Numbered from the stretch's first letter, positions 41,442 to 55,868 are shown. The stretch: 64,000 bases of DNA from Clostridia bacterium (GCA_017520505.1 JAFXFN010000018.1:184061-248060), one strand, 5' to 3'. Program-made: numbers and translations. Notes: generated by a model from the letters alone, not told the origin.

Positions 41442-43364
41442 ATGAATATGCAGCCGGGAGGCCCTCACGGCAGAGGAAGCAAAGTAAACGATCAGTACAG
41501 AATACCGAAGCCGAAAAAAATAAAAGAAATTCCCGCATATATAAAGACACTGCTTTCCACGTTTATTTTCAGACTTACATATATTTTCAAGCTTGTGTGG
41601 GAAGCAAGTCCCGTCATACTTTTTGTTATGATATTTATGTCGGTGTTCAACGGTCTTATGCCTGTTATAGGCTCACTTATCGGCAAAGAGCTTTTGAACA
41701 GTCTTGCACGTGCATATAACGGTGAGATAACGACATTTACGATAATACTTTCTCTTTTGATACTTCAGTTTGCATATCTTTTTATTTCCGATATTGTCGG
41801 AAGAATTTCGGGAATGATAACGAGAATATGCAGTGAAATCGTTTCCAATCACATAAAACTCAAGATAATAGATAAGTCAAAAGAAGTTGATATTTCCAGC
41901 TACGACAGCCCCGAATTTTACGCAAAAATGGAAAATGCAAACCGTGAGGCGGGAAGCCGTCCCATTGCGGTTTTGTCTTCATTCTTTTCTGTGTTCAGCT
42001 CCGCTATAAGCATTATAAGCTTTATTGCGATCTTGTTTGCAGTAAGTCCCTGGGCGCCTTTTGTTATGATACTCGTTTCTCTTCCCTCTACCGTTATCAG
42101 CTTTGTTTACAGACGTAAAAACGTTGATTTTATGTTCAGGAGAAGTAAGGAAAGACGTCAGATGTCATATTACTCCGACGTTATCGTAAATAAGGACCTC
42201 GCAAAAGAAATACGTATTTACAACCTTGCCGATACCTTCAAGGAAAAATATAAAACTGTTTTTGACAGATACTTCAAGGGACTCAAAAAGCTTATTATGA
42301 ATGAGTTCTGGCTGAATCTCATTGCAGGTATAGTTGCTACTGCCGTTAACTGCTTACTCTTTATTTATATTGCTAACGGAGTTTTCAAGGGAAGCTATGA
42401 GGTGGGTGACTATTCACTATATACGGGTGCTTTGAATACAATATCCGCAAGACTTTCTTCTATCATCTCTACAACTGCAATGATATACGAGGGCACATTG
42501 TTCATAAACAATATGATTGCATTTATGAATGAAGAAAAACGCATTAAGCCCACGATCGATCCTCCGAGAAAACCGGAAAGGCATATTGCACACGAAATAA
42601 AGCTTGAAAATGTTTCGTTTAAATATCCGGGAACAGAGCGTTACGTCATAAAAAATATGTCCTTGACGATAAAGCCGGGCGATACAGTCGTACTTGTCGG
42701 ACTCAACGGTGCGGGCAAAACGACACTCGTTAAGCTTCTTATAAGACTTTACGATCCGACGGAGGGCAGAATATTGCTTGACGGATACGATCTTCGTGAA
42801 TACGATACGCAGTCGCTTTACGAAATGTTCGGCATAATATTCCAGGATTACGGCAAATACGCTGTATCAGTAAGTGAAAACATTATGTTCGGGGACATCG
42901 ACAAGACGCCCGATCACAGCCACATTAAAATGTCGGCTGAACGAAGCGGCGCTGATGATTTCATAAAAGATCTTCCCAACGATTACGATACACCGCTGAT
43001 GCGTTATTTTGAGGACAACGGAATCGAGCTGTCGGGCGGTCAATGGCAGAAGCTTGCTATCGCAAGAGCTTTTTACGGAGATTCCGACATACTCGTGCTT
43101 GACGAGCCGACAGCCTCACTTGACCCGATAGCAGAAGCTGAAATATTCAATAAGTTTGACGAGCTTCGTCACGGCAAAACATCTGTTTTCGTTTCTCACA
43201 GGCTTTCAAGCGCAACGACTGCAAACTGCATAATCGTAATTGAAGACGGTCAGCTTTGCGAAATGGGAAGCCACAAAGAGCTTATGGAAGCAAAAGGAAA
43301 ATATCACGAGTTATTTACAACCCAGGCAAAGCGTTATGCCTCCGGTGTTGCATGCGATGAATAA
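41442..43364 (+). CDS. ABC exporter, fused permease/ATPase (MsbA/type I exporter-like)
   Basis: N-terminal 6-TM domain. Walker A GLNGAGKTT, signature LSGGQWQK, Walker B ILVLDEPTASLD. Confidence 0.88.
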   Translation: MNMQPGGPHGRGSKVNDQYRIPKPKKIKEIPAYIKTLLSTFIFRLTYIFKLVWEASPVILFVMIFMSVFNGLMPVIGSLIGKELLNSLARAYNGEITTFTIILSLLILQFAYLFISDIVGRISGMITRICSEIVSNHIKLKIIDKSKEVDISSYDSPEFYAKMENANREAGSRPIAVLSSFFSVFSSAISIISFIAILFAVSPWAPFVMILVSLPSTVISFVYRRKNVDFMFRRSKERRQMSYYSDVIVNKDLAKEIRIYNLADTFKEKYKTVFDRYFKGLKKLIMNEFWLNLIAGIVATAVNCLLFIYIANGVFKGSYEVGDYSLYTGALNTISARLSSIISTTAMIYEGTLFINNMIAFMNEEKRIKPTIDPPRKPERHIAHEIKLENVSFKYPGTERYVIKNMSLTIKPGDTVVLVGLNGAGKTTLVKLLIRLYDPTEGRILLDGYDLREYDTQSLYEMFGIIFQDYGKYAVSVSENIMFGDIDKTPDHSHIKMSAERSGADDFIKDLPNDYDTPLMRYFEDNGIELSGGQWQKLAIARAFYGDSDILVLDEPTASLDPIAEAEIFNKFDELRHGKTSVFVSHRLSSATTANCIIVIEDGQLCEMGSHKELMEAKGKYHELFTTQAKRYASGVACDE

Positions 43365-43416
43365 ATACAACCAAAACAATATATTTATCCCTGCGTACCG
43401 TTTATACTTTTAACAT

Positions 43417-43458
43417 AAAATACACCTTTGAAATAAGCTTTCAAAGGTGTATTTTTTT
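43417..43458. terminator. Bidirectional intrinsic terminator between convergent genes
   Basis: AAAA-TACACCTTTGA-loop-TCAAAGGTGTA-TTTTTTT. Confidence 0.8.
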
Positions 43459-43472
43459 CTCTTTTCGGGTTA

Positions 43473-43904
43473 TTATTTACTTTGTTTTTGTCTGAGCTTT
43501 TCATTAAGCTTTGACGTATTTTTCCTGATTATAAAATAAATAATTATCCAGATTATGAAATAACCGACGGCAAATATTGCAGAAAATACAAAAATCGGTG
43601 TTTTTCCCCAAGGAAGCCAGCCGTTGAGTAGATACGTTATAAAATAGCTTACGTACAATACAGAGCCGTGTATAAGAATTGCCGCCATAAGCGGAAGCTG
43701 TTCTATCTGATATATCGAATTCATACCGCCTGCAATAAAAGCAAGAGCTGTGAGGGAAAATATCCCAACACAAACCTCATTCACGGTAAGAGTGTCTATC
43801 TTTCCCTGCTGATCGAGAATAAGGTATAATACCGCAAGAATGACAGGACCGATGCCTGAGGCGATGACGCCTCTGCGGCAAAACTCCGAAATATACTTTT
43901 TCAT
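43473..43904 (-). CDS. DUF3021 family membrane protein (putative partner or inhibitor of the adjacent LytTR regulator)
   Basis: 143 aa, 4 TM. 4-nt overlap with the upstream LytTR gene. LytTR-DUF3021 is a recurrent pair. Confidence 0.65.
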   Translation of the reverse strand: MKKYISEFCRRGVIASGIGPVILAVLYLILDQQGKIDTLTVNEVCVGIFSLTALAFIAGGMNSIYQIEQLPLMAAILIHGSVLYVSYFITYLLNGWLPWGKTPIFVFSAIFAVGYFIIWIIIYFIIRKNTSKLNEKLRQKQSK

Positions 43905-44344
43905 ATTTTTTCATACCTCCGTTTAATTTCTGCGAAGCACCGTCTTGAAACATAGTCCTTATATCCGCACTCAAACACGGCATCGACTCCACCGCTGAAC
44001 GCCGCATTAAAGCGCAATATTTTATGTTCGTTTGCAAGCGTGGATTTATTGATGCGAATGAAATAAGAAGGCAGTATATCTTCAAGCTCTCTGAGCCTGT
44101 CTTGTATTTTATACTCGCATCCGTCGGTGTCAATGGCTATAACACGTCGGTCAATAACGGTGATACATTCAATTTCAGAAAACGCAAGCTTTCTCATTTC
44201 GTCATTTTTGTACCCTATAATGTAATCATCACCTGAAAACCCGCAGACGAGATTTTCTATCTGCTCTGTAAGAGATGACGGAGAGTGAACCTTTACAATT
44301 ATCTCTTCATCTGCATTTTTGTCGATAATAAGCTTATATTTCAT
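43901..44344 (-). CDS. Stand-alone LytTR-family DNA-binding protein (no receiver domain)
   Basis: 147 aa. The C-terminal region FIRINKSTLANEHKILRF is typical of the LytTR domain. Confidence 0.75.
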   Translation of the reverse strand: MKYKLIIDKNADEEIIVKVHSPSSLTEQIENLVCGFSGDDYIIGYKNDEMRKLAFSEIECITVIDRRVIAIDTDGCEYKIQDRLRELEDILPSYFIRINKSTLANEHKILRFNAAFSGGVDAVFECGYKDYVSRRCFAEIKRRYEKI

Positions 44345-44353
44345 ATTTATTCC

Positions 44354-45085
44354 TTACTGTTTTTTCATTTGCCTTAAAAAGCATAAGACAGCCAGGGCTG
44401 TTATAACTGCGCTATATATGATAATGGGCAAAATATGCGCTTTTGAAAGCGCAAAATCACCGCAAAACAACGCTTTTTCGAATTCTACGGCATGCAAAAA
44501 AGGAAATACGTTTGCAATTTTTTCAAATACTCCGCCTACAAGCTTCAAATCAAACCACACACCCGAAAGCCAAGCCGAAAGATTTGTAAGCAATGCCCCG
44601 CAAATACCGCCGACCTGCTTGACATTCAAAACGCTTCCGCACAAAAGTCCGAGAGAAATATTGAAAACAGCTATGGGAATTATACCTATAACAGCATAAA
44701 TAATATTTACACTAACTGTAAGTCCCAACGGAATTGCAACGATATAACAAATGACAGTCTGAGCTATGGCAATCGGCAAAAGCGGCAGCATATACCCGAT
44801 TATAAAATCAAATCCCGAAAGAGGTGTTGTGTACAGTCTTTGCAAAAATGCGCTTTCACGGTCTTTTGCAACGAGCGTGGCTGAAAAAAGCGTTATAAAC
44901 GAAAGACCGAATACTGTAATTCCCGGTGTAAGCGTATCTATTTCAAAAAGACTTACCGGAATATTTTTTTGCAGTGCGCTGAGAAGCAGTAAAAGCACCA
45001 AAGGAAAACCGATGCCGAAGATGAGATTTATAGGATCACGCAAAATTTCTTTTGCGCATCTTTTGGAAAAAGCCAATGTCTTCAT
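44354..45085 (-). CDS. ABC-2 type transporter permease
   Basis: Six-TM profile. 4-nt overlap with the upstream ABC ATPase. Confidence 0.75.
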   Translation of the reverse strand: MKTLAFSKRCAKEILRDPINLIFGIGFPLVLLLLLSALQKNIPVSLFEIDTLTPGITVFGLSFITLFSATLVAKDRESAFLQRLYTTPLSGFDFIIGYMLPLLPIAIAQTVICYIVAIPLGLTVSVNIIYAVIGIIPIAVFNISLGLLCGSVLNVKQVGGICGALLTNLSAWLSGVWFDLKLVGGVFEKIANVFPFLHAVEFEKALFCGDFALSKAHILPIIIYSAVITALAVLCFLRQMKKQ

Positions 45086-45810
45086 TTTATCCCTCCCCGG
45101 ACTATACTCACAAAAGCATTTTCGAAGCTGTCAGCGCCTGCTTTGCTTTTCAGCTCCTCTACTGTACCTATAGCAAGAAGCACACCGTTTTTCATAATGC
45201 CCACCCTGTCGGAAAGCGCCTTTGCTTCCTCCATATAGTGCGTTGTCAGAACGATGGTGACCTTACCTTTTAAGGTGCGTATAACCTCCCACAGTTCATG
45301 CCTTGCGATCACATCAAGTCCTAATGTAGGTTCATCGAGAAAAAGCAGCTCAGGCTCGCTTATAAGCGCCATTGCGATACTGACACGGCGTTTATAACCG
45401 CCCGATAACTTTCCTGCTTTTCTTTTCAAAACTTCATCAAGTGCGAATATTTTTGAAAGCTCTTTGATTTTCTTTTCGGTTTTTGCTTTTGAAAAGCTGT
45501 GAATACCGCATATAAGCTCCAGATTTTCTTTTACGGAAAGATTTTCCGCAACTGCTGTTTCCTGCGGTGAAACGGCTATAATGCGTTTTGCTTCATCAGA
45601 CTGCTTCGTGATACTGAAATCACCGACAAACGCATCTCCGTCTGACGGCTTTGAGAGACACGAAAGCATTTTTATAACTGTGGTCTTTCCTGCGCCGTTG
45701 ACACCGAGCAGTGAAAAAAGCTCTCCCTTTTCAATTTCCAGATCAAGATCTTTGACCGCTGTCACGTCTTTATACCGTTTTGAAAGCCCTACCGCTTTTA
45801 TCGCCTTCAT
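45082..45810 (-). CDS. ABC transporter ATP-binding protein
   Basis: Walker A GVNGAGKTT, signature LSGGYKRR, Walker B LLFLDEPTLGLD. Confidence 0.9.
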   Translation of the reverse strand: MKAIKAVGLSKRYKDVTAVKDLDLEIEKGELFSLLGVNGAGKTTVIKMLSCLSKPSDGDAFVGDFSITKQSDEAKRIIAVSPQETAVAENLSVKENLELICGIHSFSKAKTEKKIKELSKIFALDEVLKRKAGKLSGGYKRRVSIAMALISEPELLFLDEPTLGLDVIARHELWEVIRTLKGKVTIVLTTHYMEEAKALSDRVGIMKNGVLLAIGTVEELKSKAGADSFENAFVSIVRGGIK

Positions 45811-45839
45811 TTTTCTTTCCTCCGTACTTATTTTTTATG

Positions 45840-45909
45840 ATTATACCATATATAAACAAAGAAATGATGTTTTTTTGTCTGTTCGGTCATATTCGGTGTC
45901 TTATCGGTT
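45840..45909 (-). promoter_or_regulatory. Extended -10 promoter with weak -35 and three phased ACCGA repeats upstream (candidate LytTR sites)
   Basis: Minus strand TGGTATAAT (-10 at 45845-45840). ACCGA lies at 45908-45904, 45897-45893 and 45887-45883 (spacing 11 and 10 nt). There is no good -35 hexamer. Confidence 0.4.
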
Positions 45910-45924
45910 AAGACGCTTGTTTTT

Positions 45925-45956
45925 AAAAATATGCGCCGAGCCTATTGACTCAGCGC
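45925..45956 (-). terminator. Intrinsic terminator ending the riboswitch-led four-gene operon
   Basis: Minus strand GCGCUGAG-loop-CUCGGCGC (one G-U pair) followed by ATATTTTT. Confidence 0.65.
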
Positions 45957-45963
45957 ACAGATA

Positions 45964-46839
45964 TTAAAATTCATTTTCGTGTGATTTGAAAAAATCACGG
46001 TAGAGCTTGACATTTTCAAACTCGCTCCAGCGTTTCGTCACTATTGGATAGCCGTCCATATCGTAAATTTTCGCACCCTTAACAGACATTAAAAACGGGC
46101 AATGCGTGCAGATGATAAACTGACAGTTATAAAACCGTGCAGAATCCTCGATGAATTTAGCGAGCTCGATACGTCTTTCGGGGCTGAGGCTGTTTTCAGG
46201 CTCATCAAGTAAGTACAGCGCATTTTCCTTTATTTCCTTTGTGAAATACGAAAACGCACTTTCTCCGTTCGATGCGGTATACAGATCCTTTTTAGCAAGT
46301 CTTGCTGTGACGTATGAGTTTTTTGTCCCGCGCTTTGCGTTCATTACACGCTTGAATTCTTCGTAATCATCAAGGGACGTGAGATTTTCAAGCGGTGTTT
46401 TTCGGGTAATGTAATACTCATAAAACAGCTCCTCACGCCGTCTGTCAACACCCTTGTTTATCGCACGTATGTCAAGCATAAAATCAAACACGTCATCACT
46501 TGAAATATACTTGCTTCCGTCGGGAATATCCACAGCATAATATTTGCACATATCTGTGTATGTTTTAAAAAGCGGTGCATCGTTAAAAAGCGACGTTCGT
46601 TCAAGCCTCAGCTTTTCGCATATTACATTCAATAGCGTTGATTTACCCGAGCCGTTACTGCCGCAGAACATCGTCACAGGCTCAAATTCAATGCTTTGCA
46701 GCTGCTTCTTCGGAAAAAGCTTGAACGGATATGGAGTGTCCGTATAACAGCTCATATTAAGCTGATGCGTTCCGGTATTTAAAATAACGCCGTCTTCGTC
46801 CTTTTCGCTCGGCAGCTTAAATGATTTCAAATAAACCAT
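45964..46839 (-). CDS. Stand-alone ABC/SMC-like AAA ATPase (no transmembrane or nuclease domain)
   Basis: Walker A GSNGSGKST, signature-like SNGESAF, Walker B LYLLDEPENSLS, H-loop CTHCP. Confidence 0.7.
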   Translation of the reverse strand: MVYLKSFKLPSEKDEDGVILNTGTHQLNMSCYTDTPYPFKLFPKKQLQSIEFEPVTMFCGSNGSGKSTLLNVICEKLRLERTSLFNDAPLFKTYTDMCKYYAVDIPDGSKYISSDDVFDFMLDIRAINKGVDRRREELFYEYYITRKTPLENLTSLDDYEEFKRVMNAKRGTKNSYVTARLAKKDLYTASNGESAFSYFTKEIKENALYLLDEPENSLSPERRIELAKFIEDSARFYNCQFIICTHCPFLMSVKGAKIYDMDGYPIVTKRWSEFENVKLYRDFFKSHENEF

Positions 46840-47060
46840 TACTCACCTATATACGTAAATCTTTTGTATTCAACACCGTCTTTGATTACGGTTTCAGACC
46901 ACATTGAAAGCGGTCGTACCCAGATGTCTCCATCGCCGTAAAGCGCCTTATACACGACCATTTCTTCAAGCGTTTCGGAGTGGCGAGCCGTACCTATCAC
47001 CTCATATTCATTACCCTTGAAATGTCTGTATTTGCCTTTTTTAATTTCACTCACGGTCAT
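46839..47060 (-). CDS. DUF1653 domain protein
   Basis: 73 aa. GKYRHFKGNEYEVIG...VVYKALYGDGDIWVRP matches the DUF1653 pattern. Confidence 0.7.
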   Translation of the reverse strand: MTVSEIKKGKYRHFKGNEYEVIGTARHSETLEEMVVYKALYGDGDIWVRPLSMWSETVIKDGVEYKRFTYIGE

Positions 47061-47905
47061 CTTCCCCTCAAATATTCAATGACGGAAAACGCACACTTCA
47101 TTCCCGAATATACTGCTGTTGCAATTTGTTTTGGTGCTATCGTACAATCTCCTGCGGCAAATATACCGGGAACTGATGTTTTCATATTTTCATCGGTAAC
47201 AATAACACCACGGTTTTCCGAAATACCTGTACGCAATGCAAAATCAGCGGCACTCGGCACACCGTTTGCGATAAATACGCCGTCAAACGGAATTTTCTCA
47301 CCGTTTTCAAGCACAACACCGCTTACCGTATTTTCACCGATAATATGCGATATTTTATCGGTTATGACCTTGAATTTATCACTTGTTATATCCTTGCCGT
47401 TTGACAAAAGCGTGACGCTTCCGCATACACCCAACAGCACATCTGCTTCGTGGAGTGCAAATTCACCGTCACCGATAACGGCAACATTTTTGCCCTTGAA
47501 GAAAAATCCGTCACAAACAGCGCATCGGCTCACACCTCTGCCTTCAAATTCTTCCTCACCTTTTATTTTCTTGCCCTTGATACCGCTTCCCGTGGCGATA
47601 ACGACCGTCTTTGCGTAAAGCTTTTCTTCACTTGTCAAAACAGCAAACATATCCTCGAAATCAACAGAGAGAACTTGTGCTTTTTGAACCTTTACACCGA
47701 GCCTTTCAGCTTGGGCGATTCCTTTTTCGAAAAGCTCTTTGCCCGAAACGGTATCGAAACCGTAGTAATTTTCAATTTTATCTGTTTTCAAAAGTGACGA
47801 GCGTCCGTCGTCGATAACTGCGCAGGAAAAGCCTGCACGTGCAATATAAACTGCGGCGGTGATTCCCGCAGGACCACCGCCGATTATAATAGAGTCAAAT
47901 CTCAT
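47057..47905 (-). CDS. Thioredoxin-reductase-like flavoprotein disulfide oxidoreductase lacking the NADPH-specificity motif
   Basis: FAD motif GGGPAG, redox CxxC (CAVCDG), and a second Rossmann GDGEFA. No HRRxxxR motif. C-terminal GDC motif (AAGDCT). Confidence 0.75.
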   Translation of the reverse strand: MRFDSIIIGGGPAGITAAVYIARAGFSCAVIDDGRSSLLKTDKIENYYGFDTVSGKELFEKGIAQAERLGVKVQKAQVLSVDFEDMFAVLTSEEKLYAKTVVIATGSGIKGKKIKGEEEFEGRGVSRCAVCDGFFFKGKNVAVIGDGEFALHEADVLLGVCGSVTLLSNGKDITSDKFKVITDKISHIIGENTVSGVVLENGEKIPFDGVFIANGVPSAADFALRTGISENRGVIVTDENMKTSVPGIFAAGDCTIAPKQIATAVYSGMKCAFSVIEYLRGR

Positions 47906-50562
47906 TTTCTTATCCTTCTCTGAACAAATTTAACCGTTTCAACTATCGGTATAACGATTATAGCCAGTGCGAGCGCAACACCGTATTCAGCAAGGCTTAT
48001 GTGTTCAAAGCCGAACGCTGTGCTGATGCCAGGCAGATAAATAACCGCTGTTGTAAGGATAAACGAAAGCAGCATAGCACCGTAAAGGAACAGGTTATGA
48101 GTCTTTATTGAGAAAACGGATGCTTTTACTGAGCGCATATTGAACGAATGGAATATTTCAGCCATTGACATCGTCAAAAATGCCATTGTCATACCGTGAG
48201 AGCTTGTTTCAAGCGACCAGACGCCTGCTTCCATATAATGTCCAACAAGATAGGAAATAACTGTGATAGCGGCAACCATAACGCCCTGATAAACAACGTC
48301 AACACCGACACCGCCTGAGAAGATTCCGTCCTTGGGATTTCTCGGCTTGCGCTTCATAACGTCAGCCTCACCCTTTTCCATACCGAGAGCAAGTGCAGGG
48401 AAACAGTCTGTTATGAGGTTTATCCAAAGCAAATGTATAGGCTTGAGAAGTGTAAAGCCGAGAAGCGTTGCCGTGAAAATTGCCACGACCTCGGAAAGGT
48501 TTGAGGAAAGCAAGAACTGAATAGACTTTCTGATGTTGTCGTATATTCTTCTTCCTTCTCCGACAGCTGTAACTATAGTTGCAAAGTTATCGTCAGCCAA
48601 AACCATATCGGCAACATTCTTTGTAACGTCAGTACCTGTGATACCCATACCGATACCGATATCGGCACTCTTTATTGAAGGCGCATCGTTTACACCGTCG
48701 CCCGTCATTGCGGTTATAAAGCCGCGTGAGCGCCAAGCGTTTACTATCTTGACCTTGTGTTCGGGCTGAACACGTGCATATACAGAATATCTGTCAACGA
48801 TCTTCGCAAATTCTTCGTCGGTATATCCGTCGAGCATAGCGCCTGTGATAGCCTGCGATGCATCTGTGATTATTCCAAGCTCCTTGGCGATCGCCACAGC
48901 TGTGTTTATATGGTCACCTGTTATCATAACAGGACGGACACCTGCTTCCTTACACTGTGCAATAGCTGCCTTTACCTCGGGACGGACAGGGTCTATCATT
49001 CCATAATGACCGATGAATATAAGGTCGTTTTCGTTGTTCTCACAAGTGAGCTCTTCAGGCATTTCATCATACACTCTGTAAGCGCCCGAAAGCACACGCA
49101 AAGCGGAGTCTGCCATAGCCTTATTTTCGCCCGCAACTCTTGCAATTATGTCATCAGTAAGTGGAATAACATTTTCGCCGTCAAGATAATATTTGCAATG
49201 CTTCAGTATTTCATCGGGTGCACCCTTTGTAAACTGAATGTATTTTTCACCGTTTTTGTGAACGGTCGTCATCATTTTTCTGTTGGAATCAAAGGGAAGC
49301 TCGCCAACTCTCGGCATATCAACTTCTATAATTCCCTTTTCAAGTCCGAGCTTATATGCATAATTTACAAGCGCACATTCTGTAGGCTCGCCTGTTGCGT
49401 TCTTGGTTTCATCAAGAACGGCATCGGAGCAAAGCGCCATACATTTTGCAAGGAGCGTGGGATTTTCCGTTACTTCCTTGACAACGGTCATCTTATTCTG
49501 TGTAAGCGTACCCGTTTTGTCAGAGCAGATTATCTGTGTACAACCAAGTGTTTCAACCGCTGTGAGCTGTCTTATAACAGCATTTCTCTTTGACATCTTC
49601 GTAACGCCCATTGAAAGAACGATGGTTACAACTGTCGCAAGACCTTCGGGTATTGCGGCAACCGCAAGAGAAACGGCAACCATAAATGAATCAAGAAGAA
49701 CATCAAGCTTACCGTTCATAAGCTCATTCCAAGCGTTTTCCGTTGTGAAAAATCCGAACAGGAATATGAATATACTGATACCTATAACGAGATATGTCAG
49801 AATTTTTGAAAGCTCCGCAAGCTTCATCTGAAGGGGTGTTTTACCGTCCTTTGCATTTGCAAGCGCATCAGCGATCTTACCCATTTCGGTGTTCATACCG
49901 GTTTCGGTAACGACCGCAACGCCTCTGCCGTATACGACAGTCGAGCCCATATATACCATATTTTTTCTGTCGCCGAGGGGCACATTGTCACAAACAGGAA
50001 GCGCATCCGCTGTCTTGTTAACGGGAACACTTTCACCCGTCAGAGCCGCTTCCTCAGCCTTGAGGCTCGCACTTTCAATAAGTCTTGCATCCGCTGGAAC
50101 GGAGTCGCCTGCTTCGAGGATTATGATATCACCGGGTACAAGCTCATCTGTCTTTACGTGCATCAAAATGCCGTCACGCATTACCTTTGCGTTTGCGGCT
50201 GTCATTTCCTGAAGCGCCTCTATTGCCGCCTCAGCCTTACTTTCCTGAACAACACCGAGGACCGCATTTATGATAACAACGGCACCGATGATGAAAACGT
50301 CGGTAAAGCCTTCGCCGCCCTCACCCTCAACAATGGCAAGAAATGCGGAAACTGCCGCCGCAACAATAAGAATTATTGTCATCGGATCGGCAAGCTGTTT
50401 TAAGAATCTGTGAATGAGAGATTCTTTTTTTGCTTCCTTTAATTTGTTTTTTCCGTACTTTTCAAGTCTTTTCTGTGCCTCGCCTGCCGTAAGACCGCCC
50501 TTTGTACTTTCAAGCGACTTTAACGACTCGTCAGCACTTTTAAAATAATACTGCATTGTCAT
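47902..50562 (-). CDS. P-type IIA cation-transporting ATPase (Ca2+/Mn2+ exporter type)
   Basis: Phosphorylation motif CSDKTGTLT, hinge TGDGVNDAPS, TM4 IPEGL, TGES-like TGESVP. An alternative start lies 6 nt downstream (50556). Confidence 0.9.
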   Translation of the reverse strand: MTMQYYFKSADESLKSLESTKGGLTAGEAQKRLEKYGKNKLKEAKKESLIHRFLKQLADPMTIILIVAAAVSAFLAIVEGEGGEGFTDVFIIGAVVIINAVLGVVQESKAEAAIEALQEMTAANAKVMRDGILMHVKTDELVPGDIIILEAGDSVPADARLIESASLKAEEAALTGESVPVNKTADALPVCDNVPLGDRKNMVYMGSTVVYGRGVAVVTETGMNTEMGKIADALANAKDGKTPLQMKLAELSKILTYLVIGISIFIFLFGFFTTENAWNELMNGKLDVLLDSFMVAVSLAVAAIPEGLATVVTIVLSMGVTKMSKRNAVIRQLTAVETLGCTQIICSDKTGTLTQNKMTVVKEVTENPTLLAKCMALCSDAVLDETKNATGEPTECALVNYAYKLGLEKGIIEVDMPRVGELPFDSNRKMMTTVHKNGEKYIQFTKGAPDEILKHCKYYLDGENVIPLTDDIIARVAGENKAMADSALRVLSGAYRVYDEMPEELTCENNENDLIFIGHYGMIDPVRPEVKAAIAQCKEAGVRPVMITGDHINTAVAIAKELGIITDASQAITGAMLDGYTDEEFAKIVDRYSVYARVQPEHKVKIVNAWRSRGFITAMTGDGVNDAPSIKSADIGIGMGITGTDVTKNVADMVLADDNFATIVTAVGEGRRIYDNIRKSIQFLLSSNLSEVVAIFTATLLGFTLLKPIHLLWINLITDCFPALALGMEKGEADVMKRKPRNPKDGIFSGGVGVDVVYQGVMVAAITVISYLVGHYMEAGVWSLETSSHGMTMAFLTMSMAEIFHSFNMRSVKASVFSIKTHNLFLYGAMLLSFILTTAVIYLPGISTAFGFEHISLAEYGVALALAIIVIPIVETVKFVQRRIRK

Positions 50563-50594
50563 ACCCTTTCACAAATTAATTTGTTATGATATTT

Positions 50595-50710
50595 AAAAAG
50601 ACTCATACATCTTTCAATGTATGAGTCTCATTTTTTAATGATAAACCAAGCTTTCGCCGGAAATGTTGACTTACCAAACGCCGCACGGCGCAAACTACTC
50701 CCTCAAAAAT
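50595..50710 (-). promoter_or_regulatory. Candidate yybP-ykoY (Mn2+) riboswitch with terminator expression platform
   Basis: The minus strand has the ordered blocks GAGGGAGUAG (50706-50697), GUCAACAU, a GAAA-capped hairpin, and UUUAUCA...UGAGAC. GACUCAUACAU (50627-50617) pairs with AUGUAUGAGUC (50610-50600), followed by UUUUU (50599-50595). The element lies directly upstream of a P-type ATPase. Confidence 0.6.
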
Positions 50711-50720
50711 ATTAAATTTT

Positions 50721-50795
50721 TGGAGCTGGTGGAGGGATTTGAACCCTCGGCCTATTGATTACGAATCAATTGCGCTACCCCTGCGCCACACCAGC
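50721..50795 (-). tRNA. tRNA-Thr (anticodon CGU), CCA encoded
   Basis: Manual cloverleaf: acceptor GCTGGTG/CACCAGC, D stem GCGC/GCGC, anticodon stem ATTGA/TCAAT with loop TTCGTAA, T arm GAGGG-TTCAAAT-CCCTC, discriminator T, then CCA. Confidence 0.9.
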
Positions 50796-50805
50796 AAATT
50801 TAGTG

Positions 50806-50833
50806 TTGACAAATTTAAAATACGTGGTATAAT
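50806..50833 (+). promoter_or_regulatory. Near-consensus sigma-A promoter reading toward rsmA
   Basis: TTGACA (50806-50811), 16 nt with TG extension, TATAAT (50828-50833). Confidence 0.6.
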
Positions 50834-50849
50834 CTTTACAACGGAATAA

Positions 50850-50878
50850 ATTATATCATCTTTTTTCAGTTTTGTCAA
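50850..50878 (-). promoter_or_regulatory. Consensus sigma-A promoter reading toward tRNA-Thr, the riboswitch and the ATPase operon
   Basis: Minus strand TTGACA (50878-50873), 17 nt, TATAAT (50855-50850). Confidence 0.65.
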
Positions 50879-50916
50879 TATTATTTCGGAAAATTGTGTA
50901 AAAAACAAGGAGCATT

Positions 50917-51794
50917 ATGCCAAAACTCACAGATATATCATACGTCAAAAAACTGATGGAAGAAAACGGTCTTACATTTTTAAAAAAATACGGTCAGAAT
51001 TTTCTTATTAACGAGAGCGTGCCTTTAAGAACTGCAGAAATGTGTGAGGATGACACATCCTGCGGTGTTATAGAAATAGGTCCCGGAATCGTACACTTAC
51101 CTCAAAGCTTGCCGAAAGATTCAAAAAGGTCGTGGCAATAGAGATCGATACAAGACTTATCCCCGTGCTTGATACGACACTTGCCGAATACGATAATGTA
51201 ACCGTCATAAACGGTGACGTTATGGACTTTGATATAAATGACCTTATAAATGAACATTTCGAGGGAATGGACGTTTGCGTGTGCGCAAATCTTCCCTACT
51301 ACATAACAACACCCATCGTTATGAAGCTTCTGGAATCCTCTGCAAGGCTCAAAAGCATAACCATACTTATACAAAAAGAGGTTGCGGACAGACTTTGCGC
51401 AAAGGCAGGAAGCGCCGAATACGGCGCAATAACGGCATCTGTTGCATATTATGCATAGGCGAAAAAGCTGTTTAACGTATCGGCAGGCTCGTTTATGCCC
51501 GCACCCAAGGTAGATTCCACCGTTGTCAAGCTGTCGCTTTACCCCGAAAAACCCGTAAAGCCGCAAAATGAAGAGCTGATGTTCAAAATAATAAAGGCGG
51601 CATTTTTACAAAGAAGAAAAACACTTTCAAATGCCGTTTCAAACACAGTAGGCATTTCAAAATCAACCGTCGGCGATATTCTTGAAGAAATGAACCTTTC
51701 ACGTGACATAAGAGGCGAAAAGCTTTCTATATCCGAATTTGCACAATTTTCCGACATTTTAATCACGTATATGAAAAATTCCTCCGACACATAA
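50917..51794 (+). pseudogene. rsmA: 16S rRNA (adenine1518/1519-N6)-dimethyltransferase RsmA/KsgA, disrupted by a 1-nt deletion and an in-frame TAG
   Basis: Three collinear ORF fragments carry KsgA sequence. Frame 1 reads ...EIGPGIVHLP...*, while frame 0 from 51090 reads (R)TLTSKLAERFKKVVAIEID. Adding one G at about 51091 restores GPGIGTLT. A TAG at 51456-51458 interrupts ...SVAYYA*AKKLFNVSAGSFMPAPKVDS. Confidence 0.8.
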
Positions 51795-51812
51795 TATTGT
51801 CGGAGGTTTTTT

Positions 51813-52088
51813 ATGCGGTTATTCGTTATTTTATTTACTCTTATATTTTTATTTTCGCTTACAGGGTGCAAAAACAAGTCCTCGGACATCGACGGACAGT
51901 GGCAACGCTTTGACACCGTGTGGAAATTTGAAAACGGCAAAGCACATATAAACGGAACAGAATATGAATTTTCTACAGACGGTGAAAAATTATTTCTAAA
52001 AAACAAAGTCAGACAAGTAGAGATACCGTATACGCAAAACGGTAACATGCTTGAAATAAACGGATCTAAATTCATCAGAAAAAACTGA
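51813..52088 (+). CDS. Small lipoprotein, function unknown
   Basis: Lipobox LFSLTGC after a hydrophobic signal. 91 aa. Confidence 0.55.
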   Translation: MRLFVILFTLIFLFSLTGCKNKSSDIDGQWQRFDTVWKFENGKAHINGTEYEFSTDGEKLFLKNKVRQVEIPYTQNGNMLEINGSKFIRKN

Positions 52089-52276
52089 CAGTATTACCCG
52101 AAAATAATTTACTTTTTTATGAAGAAATTTAACATCAAATGTAAGAAATAAAAAATTGTTGCGGGTAATATTGTATATATTAGAAATTTAATTTATTCTT
52201 AATCATTTCTCTTCTTGAAACTTAATACTATGTATGGTACAGTTTTAAAAAAAGATGTAGATGTAAAGGTAACACA

Positions 52277-54268
52277 ATGACTGATAGCATTAAACAGAAA
52301 GACTTTAAATTGCCCGGAGTTATTTACATTGCTCTGTGTATAATATATATGGAAGTTCTCGTGAAGTTATTCACACACAACACGTTTTTCAACATAGGAC
52401 TTTTGTTCATGCCGATATTTTCGTTTGCAACTTCATTTATCATATACGGATTTTCATTCCTTTTTAAAGAAAAAAACAGGCGCCTGTTTGTCGGCGGTTG
52501 CATTTGCCTTTTGCTGGTACTTTTTGCAACACAGACGATATACCACCGTTTTTTCAACAGGTATCTTATCGTTTATTCCATAACCGGCGGCGGCATAGGT
52601 CAGGTGCTTTCGGGAGATATTGCAAGAAATACTCTCAGCGCCGTTTTGATATCAACACCGCTTGTGCTCGCACTTGCCGTACCAACGGTCATTACATTTA
52701 TTTTTTATGACAAAATAACAGTATGTAAGGTGCCGAACAAAAAATGGTACATTTATCTTGTACCAACGGTAATATTACATATTACAGCTTTGAGCGTAAT
52801 ATCCCTGATTCCGTCAACATCGGTAATTCATTCGGGGCTTTTTGACCCCAATCACTCCATTGAAAGCTTCGGTGTACTTTATACCGAGGTGCTCGATATT
52901 AAATACAACATATTGAACTTCCCCCAAAAGCTTGTTATAGAAGACGAGGATGACTCGCAACTTGTGCAGTCCTCCGCATACAATATTTCAAATTTCGACT
53001 TTGAAAAGCTTTATGAAAATGAAGAAGACGAAACGCTGAAGACCATGCATAAATATTTCAGCGAAAAATCGCCCACGCATCAGAATGAATATACGGGAAT
53101 GTACAAGGGGTATAACCTCATAACCGTTGTAGCCGAAGCCTTTTCACCGTATGCTATAAGCGAGGAGCTTACACCTACGCTGTATAAAATGAAGACTGAC
53201 GGTTTTGATTTTACAAGCTTCTACACACCCATCTGGGGTGTTTCAACGTCAGACGGTGAGTATATAGTGTCAACAGGGCTTATACCGAAGTCGGGGGTAT
53301 GGAGCTTTTACGAATCCTCCGAAAATTATATGCCGTACTGTCTTGGCAATATGTTCCGTGCTGATGGGGTAAAAAACGTTTATGCTTACCATAACAACAG
53401 CTATACATATTACCGCCGTGACCTTTCGCATACTAATATAGGATATAACTACAAGGCATTGGGCAACGGTGTCGAAAAATACGTTGAAAACGTTTGGCCG
53501 CAATCCGATCTCGAAATGGTAAGCGGCTCTGTATCGGATTACATAAGTTCCAATGAGCGTTTTCATGCCTACTATATGACCGTAAGCGGTCATCTTGAAT
53601 ATGAAAAAGACAAAAATGCAATGGCATCAAAAAACTGGGAGTATGTCAAGGATCTGAAGTGCAGTGAGCAGCTTAAAGGATACTACGCCTGTAACATAGA
53701 GCTTGACCGTGCAATGGAAAAGCTGCTTTCCGAGTTAGAAAAAGCCGGAGTCGCCGACAAGACCGTAATTATGATAACCCCTGACCACTATCCATACGGA
53801 CTTGAGGCGGATATTGGTGATGAATATTCAGTATGGCGTGAGATATTAGGACGTGATGTGGAAACGGAATTCGAGCTATACAAGAGCTGTCTTTTGCTCT
53901 ACTGTCCTTCGACAAAAAATGCGCCGACGGTTGAGAAGCCCTGTTATTCAGCGGATATTTTGCCGACGCTTTTGAACCTTTTCGGATTTGAATACGATTC
54001 ACGCTTGCTTATGGGAAGTGATATTCTTTCTCAAAGCGAAGGACTTGCCGTAATGTCAAATCACTCGTTTATAAGCGAGCTCGGAAGGTATAATGCAACG
54101 ACCGAGGAATTTATTCCGAATGACGAAAACACCTTCGTATCAGAGGAAGAAAAGGAAGAATACATACAGGACATGAACTCAAGAATAAATAATATTTTCA
54201 AAATATCCGCAAAAATACTTGAAACCGATTATTACGGATATGTTTTGAGGGATAATAATGCAAATTAA
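52277..54268 (+). CDS. LtaS-type (sulfatase-fold) polytopic membrane phosphotransferase
   Basis: N-terminal multi-TM region followed by an extracytoplasmic alkaline-phosphatase/sulfatase-fold domain. The candidate nucleophile context is WGVSTSDGEY. Confidence 0.7.
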   Translation: MTDSIKQKDFKLPGVIYIALCIIYMEVLVKLFTHNTFFNIGLLFMPIFSFATSFIIYGFSFLFKEKNRRLFVGGCICLLLVLFATQTIYHRFFNRYLIVYSITGGGIGQVLSGDIARNTLSAVLISTPLVLALAVPTVITFIFYDKITVCKVPNKKWYIYLVPTVILHITALSVISLIPSTSVIHSGLFDPNHSIESFGVLYTEVLDIKYNILNFPQKLVIEDEDDSQLVQSSAYNISNFDFEKLYENEEDETLKTMHKYFSEKSPTHQNEYTGMYKGYNLITVVAEAFSPYAISEELTPTLYKMKTDGFDFTSFYTPIWGVSTSDGEYIVSTGLIPKSGVWSFYESSENYMPYCLGNMFRADGVKNVYAYHNNSYTYYRRDLSHTNIGYNYKALGNGVEKYVENVWPQSDLEMVSGSVSDYISSNERFHAYYMTVSGHLEYEKDKNAMASKNWEYVKDLKCSEQLKGYYACNIELDRAMEKLLSELEKAGVADKTVIMITPDHYPYGLEADIGDEYSVWREILGRDVETEFELYKSCLLLYCPSTKNAPTVEKPCYSADILPTLLNLFGFEYDSRLLMGSDILSQSEGLAVMSNHSFISELGRYNATTEEFIPNDENTFVSEEEKEEYIQDMNSRINNIFKISAKILETDYYGYVLRDNNAN

Positions 54269-55811
54269 CCTACTTTTTACGATAGATGAAAAGTACATAT
54301 CACCGCTTGTAGGTGCACTCGATTCATTTTACAAGGCTCACAAGGGTATAAAAACGAAGGTATTTATTGCACACTCTTCAATACCGAACGGTGAATTTGA
54401 CAAACTGCAAGAAAGATTTTCTCCGTTCGATGCGGAAATAATAAGTGTAAAAATAACAGAAAGATGGTTTTCGGATACACCGGTATTGGAACGGTTGCCC
54501 GAAGAATCGTTCTACAGACTTTTATCCTTTGACTATTTACCGAAGGACATTGACAAATGCCTTTACCTTGATCCGGATATTTTCATAAATAAACCCGTCA
54601 CAGAGCTTTATAATATGAATCTTGACGGCAAGTATCTTGCCGCGGCAAGCCATACATACGGAATAAAAAGCACCCTTAACAGGATAAGATTGGGTATAAA
54701 GCACCGATATTTCAACTCAGGTGTCATGCTTATGAATCTCGATGAAATAAGACGTGATTTCACCGTACAAAAAGTTATTGACTGCTTAAATGATAATATG
54801 CAGAAGCTCATCATGGGAGATCAAGACCTTGCAAATATTCTGTTCGGTGAAAAATCTGTATCTTTAGACGAGATGATATACAATCTTGACGAGCGTACGT
54901 TTAAGCATAACAGAAAGAAATACAGTCTCGACTGGGTTAAAGAAAATACCGCTGTAATACACTATAACGGAAAATTCAAGCCATGGCTTGACGGATATGA
55001 GGGTGAGCTTGATGTTCTCTATCCGAATGTGCCGTCAAAGGGTGCGGCTCCTAAAACAGATCCCAAAAAAAGAATAAAAACGATTCAAACAATAATCAAG
55101 CTCAAGCCACGCCAAAAAATAGTTATAGCAGGATTTCTTTTTGTTGTCATTTTGTGCATTGTGAGCTATCTGACTGTAGGAAAGGAGCTTATCAAGATCG
55201 TTTCCGATCCTGTCATTTTCCGTTCTTGGCTCGACAGATTCGGAAGCTTTGATGAGCTTGTATTCATTGCCATTCGTTCCGTGCAAACCATTATAAAGTT
55301 TATACCCGCCGAGCCGCTTGAGATAGGTTCAGGATACGCTTGGGGAGCTGTTCCGGGAATGTTATACTGTGTTTTTGCAAATATGATAGGCACGGTATTC
55401 ATATGGGTATTTACGAAAAAATACGGAAGAAAGTTTGTTGAATTTTTCATACCCATAAAACACATCGAAGCATTTTTTACGTTTAAAAATTCTTCTCATA
55501 TATATCTTCTGTTATTTCTTTTCTACCTGATTCCCGGTTCACCCAAGGACGGCTTTACTTATATTGCAGGTCTTCTGCCGATAAAGTTCGTACCATTTAT
55601 GATAGTGACAAACATTGCAAGAATGCCGTCTGTGCTTTCCTCAACAATGTGCGGTGCAACGCTTGCAAATAAAAATTATCTCATATCGGGGCTTATACTG
55701 TTACTTACCGCTGTATTGGCTGTTTTGGGAAGTGTAGCATACGTTTTTTACATTAAGAGAAACAAGAACAAACAAACAGCAACAGACAGCAAGGTTTTGC
55801 AAAAGCTTTGA
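54258..55811 (+). CDS. Fusion protein: GT8 glycosyltransferase (N-terminal) plus TVP38/TMEM64 (DedA-superfamily) membrane domain (C-terminal)
   Basis: GT8 motifs YLDPDIFI (DxD), FNSGVMLMNL and HYNGKFKPW. After a TM segment come the two DedA-type re-entrant motifs FIPAEPLEIGSGYAWG and LIPGSPKDGFTYIAG. The gene overlaps the LtaS-like gene by 11 nt. Confidence 0.7.
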   Translation: MQINLLFTIDEKYISPLVGALDSFYKAHKGIKTKVFIAHSSIPNGEFDKLQERFSPFDAEIISVKITERWFSDTPVLERLPEESFYRLLSFDYLPKDIDKCLYLDPDIFINKPVTELYNMNLDGKYLAAASHTYGIKSTLNRIRLGIKHRYFNSGVMLMNLDEIRRDFTVQKVIDCLNDNMQKLIMGDQDLANILFGEKSVSLDEMIYNLDERTFKHNRKKYSLDWVKENTAVIHYNGKFKPWLDGYEGELDVLYPNVPSKGAAPKTDPKKRIKTIQTIIKLKPRQKIVIAGFLFVVILCIVSYLTVGKELIKIVSDPVIFRSWLDRFGSFDELVFIAIRSVQTIIKFIPAEPLEIGSGYAWGAVPGMLYCVFANMIGTVFIWVFTKKYGRKFVEFFIPIKHIEAFFTFKNSSHIYLLLFLFYLIPGSPKDGFTYIAGLLPIKFVPFMIVTNIARMPSVLSSTMCGATLANKNYLISGLILLLTAVLAVLGSVAYVFYIKRNKNKQTATDSKVLQKL

Positions 55812-55823
55812 AAACACGAAATC

Positions 55824-55861
55824 AAAAGCACTTATGATAGTCGTCATCATAAGTGCTTTTT
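55824..55861. terminator. Bidirectional intrinsic terminator between convergent genes
   Basis: AAAA-GCACTTATGAT-AGTCGTC-ATCATAAGTGC-TTTTT. Confidence 0.8.
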
Positions 55862-55868
55862 CATTACT

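Follow-up and report, generated by a model that had tools for sequence, protein, structure and literature searches.

Whether four tightly coupled genes behind a Mn-riboswitch-like leader form a functional module is the question raised by a locus in Clostridia bacterium (GCA_017520505.1, JAFXFN010000018.1:184061-248060). The stretch of DNA analyzed, hereafter the window, is 64,000 nucleotides long. The genes encode a P-type ATPase (the pump), a thioredoxin reductase (TrxR)-like flavoprotein, a DUF1653 protein and a solitary ABC-type ATPase. An initial annotation had considered the last three to be unusual cargo for such a leader, and we agree. It had further proposed that the tight coupling reflects a functional module. 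Related loci are referred to by L numbers.

Organization of the four-gene unit

The open reading frames and junctions at 45964-50562 are exactly as annotated, and profile searches agree with the assigned domain identities (P-type ATPase, TrxR-like, DUF1653 and ABC-type ATPase; Table 1). The overlaps measure 4 nt (ATGA) between the pump and TrxR-like genes, 4 nt between the TrxR-like and DUF1653 genes, and 1 nt (TAATG) between the DUF1653 and ATPase genes. Shine-Dalgarno-like purine runs are found before all four starts (GAAAGGG, AGAAGGA, GAGGGGA and AGGTGAG). Overlaps of 4 or 1 nt occur in 9 of the 41 co-directional gene pairs in the window, and in 6 of 38 without this cluster. Since they are common in this genome, three in a row argue for one operon and are nothing exceptional. 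The terminator after the fourth gene is the sole strong one past the leader, as the annotation had stated; we place it at 45930-45959, and no second strong terminator is located between it and the leader. The ABC-2 transporter operon further downstream has its own extended -10, TGGTATAAT.

Table 1. Features of the four-gene unit and its upstream region, in order of transcription
Feature	Position	Strand	Description
Sigma-70-type promoter	50850-50878	minus	TTGACA-17-TATAAT with TG; 12/12 consensus match; upstream of tRNA-Thr
tRNA-Thr (anticodon CGU)	50721-50795	minus	ARAGORN; Rfam tRNA 73 bits; CCA encoded; 17 nt upstream of leader
Aptamer-like leader	50623-50704	minus	Three-way-junction yybP-ykoY-like
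Leader intrinsic terminator (putative expression platform)	50595-50629	minus	12-bp stem, T-run
Pump gene	47902-50562	minus	P-type IIA Ca2+/Mn2+-type ATPase (LMCA1/MgtA-like), 886 aa
TrxR-like flavoprotein gene	47057-47905	minus	282 aa; TRi/FFTR-like
DUF1653 gene	46839-47060	minus	73 aa; PF07866
Solitary ABC/SMC-head-like ATPase gene	45964-46839	minus	291 aa
Intrinsic terminator after ATPase gene	45930-45959	minus	13-bp GC-rich hairpin (13 pairs, 7 GC) and T-run; closes the four-gene unit

A test of foreign origin found host-like GC and GC3 in all four genes, and none has a paralogue elsewhere in the 64-kb window. A chimeric assembly is ruled out, since four independent assemblies (L001, L002, L003 and L175) show the same arrangement. 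The four genes probably form a compact, co-transcribed unit behind the leader.

The promoter and the leader

We infer that the promoter at 50850-50878 is used by the operon, and it probably drives the whole unit. The tRNA-Thr gene sits between the promoter and the leader. No comparable promoter is found between the tRNA gene and the leader, and the gap from the leader terminator to the pump ATG is too short for one. The order tRNA-leader-pump is also observed in L163, L165 and L175.

The leader contains, in order, GAGGGAGUAG (L1-like), the P2 hairpin, the P3 helix, UUAAA and GAGACUC. P3 encloses UCAACA (L3-like) and a GAAA-capped hairpin. The P1 helix and the leader terminator share GAGACUC, which serves the former as its 3' strand and the latter as its 5' arm. 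The leader motif is present in 12 of 177 loci, upstream of pump genes only, and the leader precedes pump orthologues in nine lineages. In an alignment of nine distinct leaders, 94.7% of cells are paired, compared to 31-57% in slid controls. Seven pairs changed on both sides, and none of 500 shuffles attains such values. The terminator is conserved with compensatory changes (RNAalifold).

RF00080 (yybP-ykoY) has no match in the window at gathering or at E<=10, and the same holds for eight related loci. The only match to the leader is SSRC10 (RF02617), with 28.6 bits against a gathering threshold of 56, E=0.0024 and a full-length alignment (1-113); the L165 leader obtains the same 28.6-bit score. 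In S. pyogenes, the SSRC10 leader precedes a gene for a Ca transporter (PMC3675131). In the mgtA riboswitch subtype, a three-way junction is followed by UNAAA after P3 in place of P4, and then by a terminator (PMC6649816). Comparison by inspection, made without a covariance model of that subtype, found in our leader L1 GGGAGUAG, a UCAACA-like L3, P2 and P3, UUAAA for P4 and a terminator overlapping the P1 3' strand.

Because RF00080 gave no match, we do not file the leader as a member of that family and rely on anatomy and covariation instead. Judged by these, it is a real structured element of the three-way-junction yybP-ykoY type. Its riboswitch function, including the logic of an ON switch, is suggested by analogy.

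The encoded proteins

All Pfam domains of the pump score above cutoff (Cation_ATPase_N, E1-E2_ATPase, Cation_ATPase, Hydrolase and Cation_ATPase_C). It passes NCBIfam TIGR01517 (510.7, cutoff 507.05) and falls below the cutoffs of TIGR01522 (638, cutoff 798) and TIGR01116 (621, cutoff 703). Listeria LMCA1 (PDB 6zhf) is matched over the full length at 1.5e-211. By domain set and equivalog cutoff, the pump is assigned as an IIA/IIB Ca2+-type P-type ATPase.

The TrxR-like protein matches Pyr_redox_2. Its best PDB match is 5nii (2.6e-47), followed by 6gnc, 6gna and 6gnd. In Desulfovibrio, TRi acts in the response to oxidative or disulfide stress. The FAD motif GxGxxG, CAVC and GDGEFA (GxGxxA) are present, and SNGK is found where HRRxxxR is expected. 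The missing HRRxxxR and a TIGR01292 score of 233 bits, under the cutoff of 343, argue against an NADPH-dependent thioredoxin reductase (TIGR01292/NTR). With criteria from PMC10880999 for sorting NADPH-dependent from NAD(P)H-independent enzymes, these sequence features point to a thioredoxin-reductase homologue that resembles TRi and FFTR and is probably NAD(P)H-independent.

The DUF1653 protein matches PF07866 with 105.8 bits (gathering 23.5; 1.4e-30) over 61 of 62 profile positions. Its PDB match, 3be3, is an uncharacterized protein. Our literature search found DUF1653 mentioned in a single proteomics paper, which gives no data on its function.

The ATPase matches AAA_15, AAA_21 and ABC_tran. 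It carries Walker A (GSNGSGKST), a signature-like SNGES, Walker B (LYLLDEPE), an H-loop TH and a short helical-hairpin insert. Its AlphaFold model (pLDDT 80) finds by Foldseek only generic OLD, SMC, Rad50, PtuA and ABC-F heads, at TM 0.3-0.44. We rejected an ABC transporter ATP-binding subunit, since the ABC_tran match is gapped and reaches only 31.7 bits, and the unit contains no permease. Permeases are not recurrent neighbors of its homologues in 73 loci, and the ABC-2 operon downstream, with its own ATPase and promoter, is separate from the 291-aa ATPase. Septu PtuA, PARIS AriA and Gabija GajA were also rejected: similarity extends only over residues ~46-81 and ~185-260, PtuB, AriB and GajB are missing, and TM is at most 0.44. 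We likewise rejected a defense-system reading in general, since PADLOC, PDB profiles, Foldseek, PHROGs and a scan of viral contigs gave nothing beyond generic similarity in the P-loop and Walker B and four full-length viral relatives plus one partial.

Comparison with related loci

Neighborhood data were taken from the pump, ATPase and DUF1653 sides. The ATPase family is large (at least 7999 matches). In a sample of the best 80 of at least 491 matches, a pump, TrxR-like or DUF1653 gene is found within 10 kb of the homologue in 0 of 79 species-level loci (47-58% identity). No neighbor is common to more than 4 of ~73 loci (Bacillota, mostly Clostridia). Similarly, DUF1653 is accompanied by another gene of the unit, such as the ATPase or a TrxR-like gene, in 0 of 80 metagenome loci, a redundant sample that forms 25 groups at 93% identity. 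DUF1653 is linked weakly to a YgjP/DUF45-like gene (6 of 25 groups) and to a NUDIX gene (6 of 25 groups), both absent here. No loci other than the window, L001, L002, L003 and L175 have it at this operon position. At 84% identity it occurs in two further contexts, both unrelated to this unit and without an ATPase or TrxR-like neighbor.

Gene content is graded with pump identity. L175, with a pump 89% identical, has all four genes. The same gene order is found in L001, L002 and L175, and in part in L003; all four are close relatives (pump at least 89%). In L163/L164 (pump 87%) only the pump and TrxR-like genes are present, directly followed by a terminator. In L165 (pump 79%) the pair is followed by an unrelated 180-aa lipoprotein-like gene. 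At 67-73% identity the pump stands alone (L166-L168, L169/170, L171/172, L176 and L177). These monocistronic pumps represent six lineages, and the leader is present in five. The pump and reductase are found together only at pump identities of at least 79%, and all four genes only at 89% or above.

The pump-TrxR junction in relatives is tight, with a 4-nt overlap or a 0-nt gap. Syntenic orthologues of the TrxR-like gene are located in L175, L003, L163 and L165. In the TrxR tree, the carriers of DUF1653 and the ATPase (window, L003 and L175; 82-88%) are placed apart from L163 (70%) and L165 (55%), a grouping compatible with one gain of the two genes. No decayed remnants of DUF1653 or the ATPase are found in L163-L165. 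The two genes may instead have been lost in L163 rather than gained in the clade of the window.

On these counts (0/79 and 0/80) and with the pump alone at 67-73%, the inference from tight coupling to a functional module largely fails. Neighborhood conservation, the check that the initial annotation had called for, is largely lacking: the four-gene set is confined to close relatives, and only the pump and TrxR-like pair persists over appreciable divergence, to a pump identity of 79% and a reductase identity of 55%. We favor, with moderate confidence, the reading that the pump is the only conserved partner of the leader, and that the remaining three are recent additions, confined to a narrow set of gut Clostridia. 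Most likely, DUF1653 and the ATPase are mere passengers on the read-through transcript of the pump. The link between pump and reductase is possibly real.

Alternative explanations

The pump and the putatively NAD(P)H-independent reductase could form a two-gene functional module, with DUF1653 and the ATPase as later passengers. For example, an Mn2+/Ca2+ signal inducing efflux could also switch on disulfide/thiol repair in these anaerobes. In three lineage groups, namely the clade of the window, L163/164 and L165, the two genes are in synteny and closely joined. The reductase diverges to 55-70% identity and yet keeps CAVC and GxGxxA, with the CAVC site intact down to the 55% of L165, which hints at selection for togetherness. 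TRi/FFTR enzymes also serve the oxidative/disulfide stress response in anaerobes (PMC10880999). However, the six monocistronic lineages, five bearing the leader, do without the reductase, and the 64-kb window contains no thioredoxin (CxxC) gene. In addition, the clade is narrow (pump at least 79%), and common descent by itself can account for the synteny. We consider this module a tentative possibility. An extended form, in which metal overload induces thiol-disulfide repair through reductase and efflux pump under an Mn2+/Ca2+ riboswitch, and DUF1653 and the ATPase are recruited accessories (e.g. a chaperone or loader that serves the reductase or pump), appears unlikely.

A dedicated metal-stress or redox-repair module of all four genes, as initially proposed, is quite improbable. 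Translational coupling, the single terminator and the recurring gene order (L001, L002, L175, partly L003) would fit it. However, the recurrences are limited to pumps of at least 89% identity, co-occurrence elsewhere is nil from both the ATPase and DUF1653 sides (0/79 and 0/80), the sister at 87% has a terminator in place of the two genes, and DUF1653 at 84% identity is found in unrelated contexts.

Finally, DUF1653 and the ATPase could be a small mobile cassette with a toxin-antitoxin or anti-phage role (AAA_21/AbiEii-like, PtuA/AriA-like) that entered the operon at its end, but this is hardly credible. PADLOC and PDB matches of the ATPase to PtuA, AriA, MADS3 and GajA and the presence or absence of the two genes among close relatives speak for it. 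However, the matches are confined to the Walker A and Walker B/D-loop regions and in no case span the whole protein, there is no nuclease or other partner gene, the ATPase is never paired with DUF1653 elsewhere (0/79 loci) and has no conserved neighbor, 2.9 million viral contigs contain four full-length relatives and one partial, and GC and GC3 are host-like.

Proposed mechanism and history

In the mechanism we propose, transcription would proceed from 50878-50850 through tRNA-Thr into the three-way-junction yybP-ykoY-like leader. By analogy to the Streptococcus mgtA riboswitch, binding of metal (Mn2+, possibly Ca2+) would allow the P1 helix (GAG/CUC) to keep GAGACUC from the terminator. With GAGACUC held in P1, RNA polymerase would read into the pump gene. 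The TrxR-like, DUF1653 and ATPase genes, whose arrangement is directly seen, would be co-expressed with the pump, because transcription would meet no terminator ahead of the one at 45930-45959 and each stop codon overlaps the next start.

The ancestral and conserved cargo of this riboswitch-gated unit would be the metal pump alone. The three downstream genes would have been appended at the variable 3' end of the operon in two recent steps. The TrxR-like gene, putatively of the NAD(P)H-independent kind, probably joined first, in the clade with at least 79% pump identity. DUF1653 and the ATPase would have followed only in the sub-clade with at least 89%. In sister lineages the operon ends otherwise, either with a terminator right after the reductase or with the lipoprotein-like gene. 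The graded gene content among relatives suggests that DUF1653 and the ATPase are most likely incidental, while the reductase may or may not be co-opted.

If our main reading is true, overlapping stop and start codons and a common terminator indicate co-expression, not common function, and the neighborhood test tells the ancestral unit of riboswitch and pump apart from genes that joined it recently. The leader would represent a class in Clostridia that is supported by covariation, precedes IIA P-type ATPases in nine lineages and is missed by current Rfam models. If the pump-reductase link is functional, it would join Mn2+/Ca2+ sensing to ferredoxin-/TRi-type thiol redox control in anaerobes. 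To our knowledge, such a link has not been described before.

Comparison with known systems

The DUF1653 protein matches its family (PF07866; 3be3) over the full length and differs in lacking the usual YgjP/DUF45-like or NUDIX neighbors. The ATPase shares with PtuA, AriA, GajA, OLD and the SMC/Rad50 heads the Walker A, signature-like, Walker B, D-loop and H-loop motifs and an ABC-head fold with a helical insertion. Unlike them, it is only 291 aa long, contains no nuclease or TOPRIM domain, has no partner gene and is located in variable neighborhoods (~73 loci).

The TrxR-like protein resembles D. vulgaris TRi (5nii) and the clostridial FFTR, which depends on ferredoxin (6gna-6gnd), in its low-molecular-weight TrxR fold, FAD motif and CxxC (CAVC). 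As in TRi/FFTR, HRRxxxR is lost, S/T-N/Q-G-K is found at that position, and the length is ~280-290 aa. In C. difficile, FFTR genes form pairs with trxA (PMC10880999). The reductase gene of the window instead lies behind a metal pump and has no thioredoxin gene in its vicinity.

The closest parallel for the leader and pump is S. pneumoniae mgtA (caxP), in which an Mn2+ riboswitch accompanies a PII-type Mn2+/Ca2+ ATPase (Martin et al., 2019; PMC6649816). Our leader differs from the mgtA and SSRC10 leaders in its Rfam scores (no RF00080 match; RF02617 28.6/56 bits), in the tRNA-Thr gene embedded between it and the promoter and in the three extra genes after the pump. It shares with the S. pneumoniae riboswitch a GGGAGUAG-type L1, a UCAAxA-type L3, a three-way junction with UNAAA for P4 and a terminator 5' arm in common with P1, and likewise the gene that directly follows it encodes an LMCA1/MgtA-like IIA P-type ATPase. 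Overall, the four-gene unit looks like ordinary operon growth and not a new conserved system.

Organization of the four-gene unit

Re-examination of the window reproduced exactly the four ORFs of the initial annotation, their positions and their junction overlaps (4, 4 and 1 nt, in gene order). It also confirmed a single strong terminator after gene 4. Each start codon is preceded by a purine-rich Shine-Dalgarno sequence located within the preceding gene. Overlaps of 4 or 1 nt occur in 9 of the 41 co-directional gene pairs in the window, and in 6 of 38 without the cluster. Because such junctions are frequent in this genome, they support one operon and nothing beyond. GC and GC3 are host-like for all four genes. 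The arrangement is seen again in the near-identical contigs L001 and L002, in the more distant locus L175 and partially in locus L003, and is thus not an assembly artefact.

Features of the leader-pump unit
Feature	Position	Strand	Description
Consensus sigma-70 promoter	50878-50850	minus	upstream of tRNA-Thr
tRNA-Thr(CGU)	50721-50795	minus	between promoter and leader, 17 nt from leader
Leader	50704-50595	minus	GAGGGAGUAG, hairpin, UGGUAAG UCAACA..., GAAA-capped hairpin, UUUAUCA UUAAA ... GAGACUC
Gene 1, pump	47902-50562	minus	ORF, 886 aa
Gene 2, TrxR-like flavoprotein	47057-47905	minus	ORF, 282 aa
Gene 3, DUF1653	46839-47060	minus	ORF, 73 aa
Gene 4, ABC/SMC-head-like ATPase	45964-46839	minus	ORF, 291 aa
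Intrinsic terminator	45959-45930	minus	13-bp hairpin and T-run; sole strong one 3' of leader

A separate operon lies downstream (43473-45810, minus strand). It encodes a DrrA-like ABC ATPase, an ABC-2 permease, a LytTR-domain protein and a DUF3021 protein, has its own extended -10 promoter, and also shows 4-nt overlaps among its junctions. Immediately upstream of the unit, the 16S rRNA dimethyltransferase gene ksgA/rsmA (50917-51794, plus strand) is doubly disrupted. Window positions 43001-56000 are 99.98% identical to L001 over 13 kb, and the only three differences are all in this gene. G to T at 51092 and a 1-nt deletion at 51094 shift the reading frame within the GxGxG SAM motif; G to T at 51456 changes GAA to TAA. 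The L001 gene is intact (292 aa). Loss of KsgA confers kasugamycin resistance, and the break reflects either selected loss of KsgA or local sequence errors.

The encoded proteins

Gene 1 contains the complete P-type IIA/IIB domain set and clears the PMCA-type equivalog cutoff. The Listeria Ca2+-ATPase LMCA1 aligns with it end to end (1.5e-211). Gene 2 encodes a homologue of low-molecular-weight thioredoxin reductases; its 233 bits fall below the TrxB equivalog cutoff of 343. It retains the FAD motif, the CAVC redox centre and GDGEFA, and lacks HRRxxxR, with SNGK in its place. Among solved structures it is closest to 5nii and to the clostridial 6gna-6gnd. 5nii is a Desulfovibrio TRi, and by comparison with it and with the FFTRs gene 2 is probably an NAD(P)H-independent enzyme of TRi/FFTR type. 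No ORF with a thioredoxin-type CxxC was found within the 64-kb window. Gene 2 is non-NTR by the criteria for clostridial TrxBs (PMC10880999).

Gene 3 matches DUF1653 over its full length. Its sole solved relative, 3be3, is uncharacterised, and a literature search on DUF1653 found no functional data. Gene 4 encodes a compact ATPase resembling ABC/SMC heads. Its AlphaFold model (pLDDT 80) retrieved only generic OLD, SMC, Rad50 and PtuA heads, at TM 0.3-0.44.

A structured leader precedes the pump

At the gathering threshold, Rfam reported tRNA-Thr alone and no riboswitch family, and the yybP-ykoY model (RF00080) gave no match to the leader even at E<=10. The sole relevant match is a full-length alignment to SSRC10 (RF02617) at 28.6 bits, half the gathering score. 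SSRC10 was defined in S. pyogenes, where a gene for a putative calcium transporter directly follows it (PMC3675131). The leader core pattern is present in 12 of the 177 fetched loci, every time just upstream of a pump orthologue. Across nine distinct leaders, hand-drawn helices are paired in 94.7% of cells, versus 31-57% with partners slid. Seven pairs change on both sides, and none of 500 shuffles reached the observed values. P2, P3 and the terminator were recovered independently by RNAalifold. GAGACUC doubles as the 5' arm of the 12-bp terminator. No room for a promoter exists between this terminator and the pump start, so the pump can be expressed by read-through only.

The tRNA-leader-pump order is repeated in loci L163, L165 and L175; in more distant lineages the promoter directly precedes the leader. 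The position of the tRNA behind the promoter implies a putative tRNA-riboswitch-mRNA co-transcript. A second perfect promoter (TTGACA-16-TATAAT, 50806-50833, plus strand) is directed towards ksgA, so the 355-nt intergenic region contains a back-to-back pair of consensus promoters. The leaders in the window, L163, L165, L166, L168, L171, L175, L176 and L177 make up a yybP-ykoY-like class with a three-way junction, covariation-supported in nine lineages of Clostridia. It is unseen by RF00080 and only half-scored by SSRC10.

Neighbourhood comparison

Neighbourhoods were compared from three sides: the pump, the ATPase and DUF1653. On the pump side, L175 (pump 89% identical to that of the window) contains all four genes. 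L163/L164 (87%) have pump and reductase only, followed at once by a strong terminator. In L165 (79%), an unrelated lipoprotein-like gene comes after pump and reductase. No trace of a decayed DUF1653 or ATPase gene was found in L163-L165. The pump stands alone in six lineages at 67-73% (L166/167, L168, L169/170, L171/172, L176 and L177), five of which still have the leader; in L. phytofermentans (L169) this leader is missing from the pump locus. The reductases of the window, L003 and L175 group at 82-88% identity, apart from L163 (70%) and L165 (55%), which is compatible with one gain of DUF1653 and the ATPase in the window sub-clade. A sub-threshold Gut-1 RNA match (RF01706, 41.8 bits vs 50) lies at 5444-5515 (minus strand) of L163, in a 790-nt gene-free stretch after the pump-reductase operon.

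These distributions probably reflect stepwise accretion at the variable 3' end of the operon. A real, more than incidental, pairing of pump and reductase is a less likely reading. The two stayed tightly joined, with the catalytic CAVC kept, while the reductase fell to 55% identity; however, within so narrow a clade, common descent is enough to explain the synteny.

The ATPase side covered species-representative genomes, with up to 10 kb each side of the top 80 among at least 491 matches. In 79 of these 80 (homologues at 47-58% identity), DUF1653, a TrxR-like gene and a IIA pump are all absent; only L003 (ATPase 86% identical) keeps TrxR, DUF1653 and ATPase. Clustering three genes per side revealed no family in more than four loci. 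The gene 4 family is a widespread solitary gene. It is well conserved (L004-L082, 47-62% identity) in Clostridia, Paenibacillus, Peptoniphilus and Syntrophomonas, with no conserved neighbour among the loci compared. The DUF1653 side comprised 80 metagenome loci (L083-L162, 64-78% identity, mostly human-gut contigs; 25 groups once dereplicated), none with an ATPase or TrxR-like neighbour. The most frequent neighbours, each in 6 of the 25 groups, are a YgjP/DUF45-like protein of 171 aa directly downstream and a NUDIX hydrolase upstream. Two DUF1653 homologues at 84% identity adjoin a MatE gene and a VanY gene.

The functional module proposed initially went mostly unsupported as a conserved one, and it is very unlikely that all four genes form such a module. 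As far as these comparisons reach, no evolutionary evidence ties DUF1653 or the ATPase functionally to the pump, the reductase or each other. A defence or TA cassette of these two genes is scarcely credible, since the profile and PADLOC matches of gene 4 to AriA, PtuA and ABC-F are partial (Walker A and Walker B/D-loop segments only), partner genes are absent, and the ATPase family is nearly absent from viral contigs.

Discussion

Under stepwise accretion, leader and pump would be ancestral. A TRi-type reductase would have joined them, and DUF1653 and the ATPase would have been added last, in the window sub-clade, with sister lineages ending the pump unit in different ways. Read-through of the leader would co-express all downstream genes with the pump because of their position.

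The Streptococcus mgtA riboswitch is described as a three-way-junction member of yybP-ykoY; it has an invariant UNAAA instead of P4, then a terminator, and drives a PII-type Mn2+/Ca2+ ATPase (PMC6649816). The window leader likewise has a UNAAA-type segment (UUAAA) followed by a terminator. The riboswitch call of the initial annotation therefore holds for a structured, covarying leader of mgtA-type architecture, and fails for RF00080 membership. On comparative grounds, this is a genuine structured leader of mgtA-type yybP-ykoY architecture, below formal Rfam membership and with predicted metal binding. A candidate leader class invisible to Rfam, with an embedded tRNA, deserves note as an aside, as does the disrupted ksgA/rsmA gene. 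The locus itself belongs to a known kind, the P-type ATPase behind a riboswitch, and carries passenger genes specific to its lineage.
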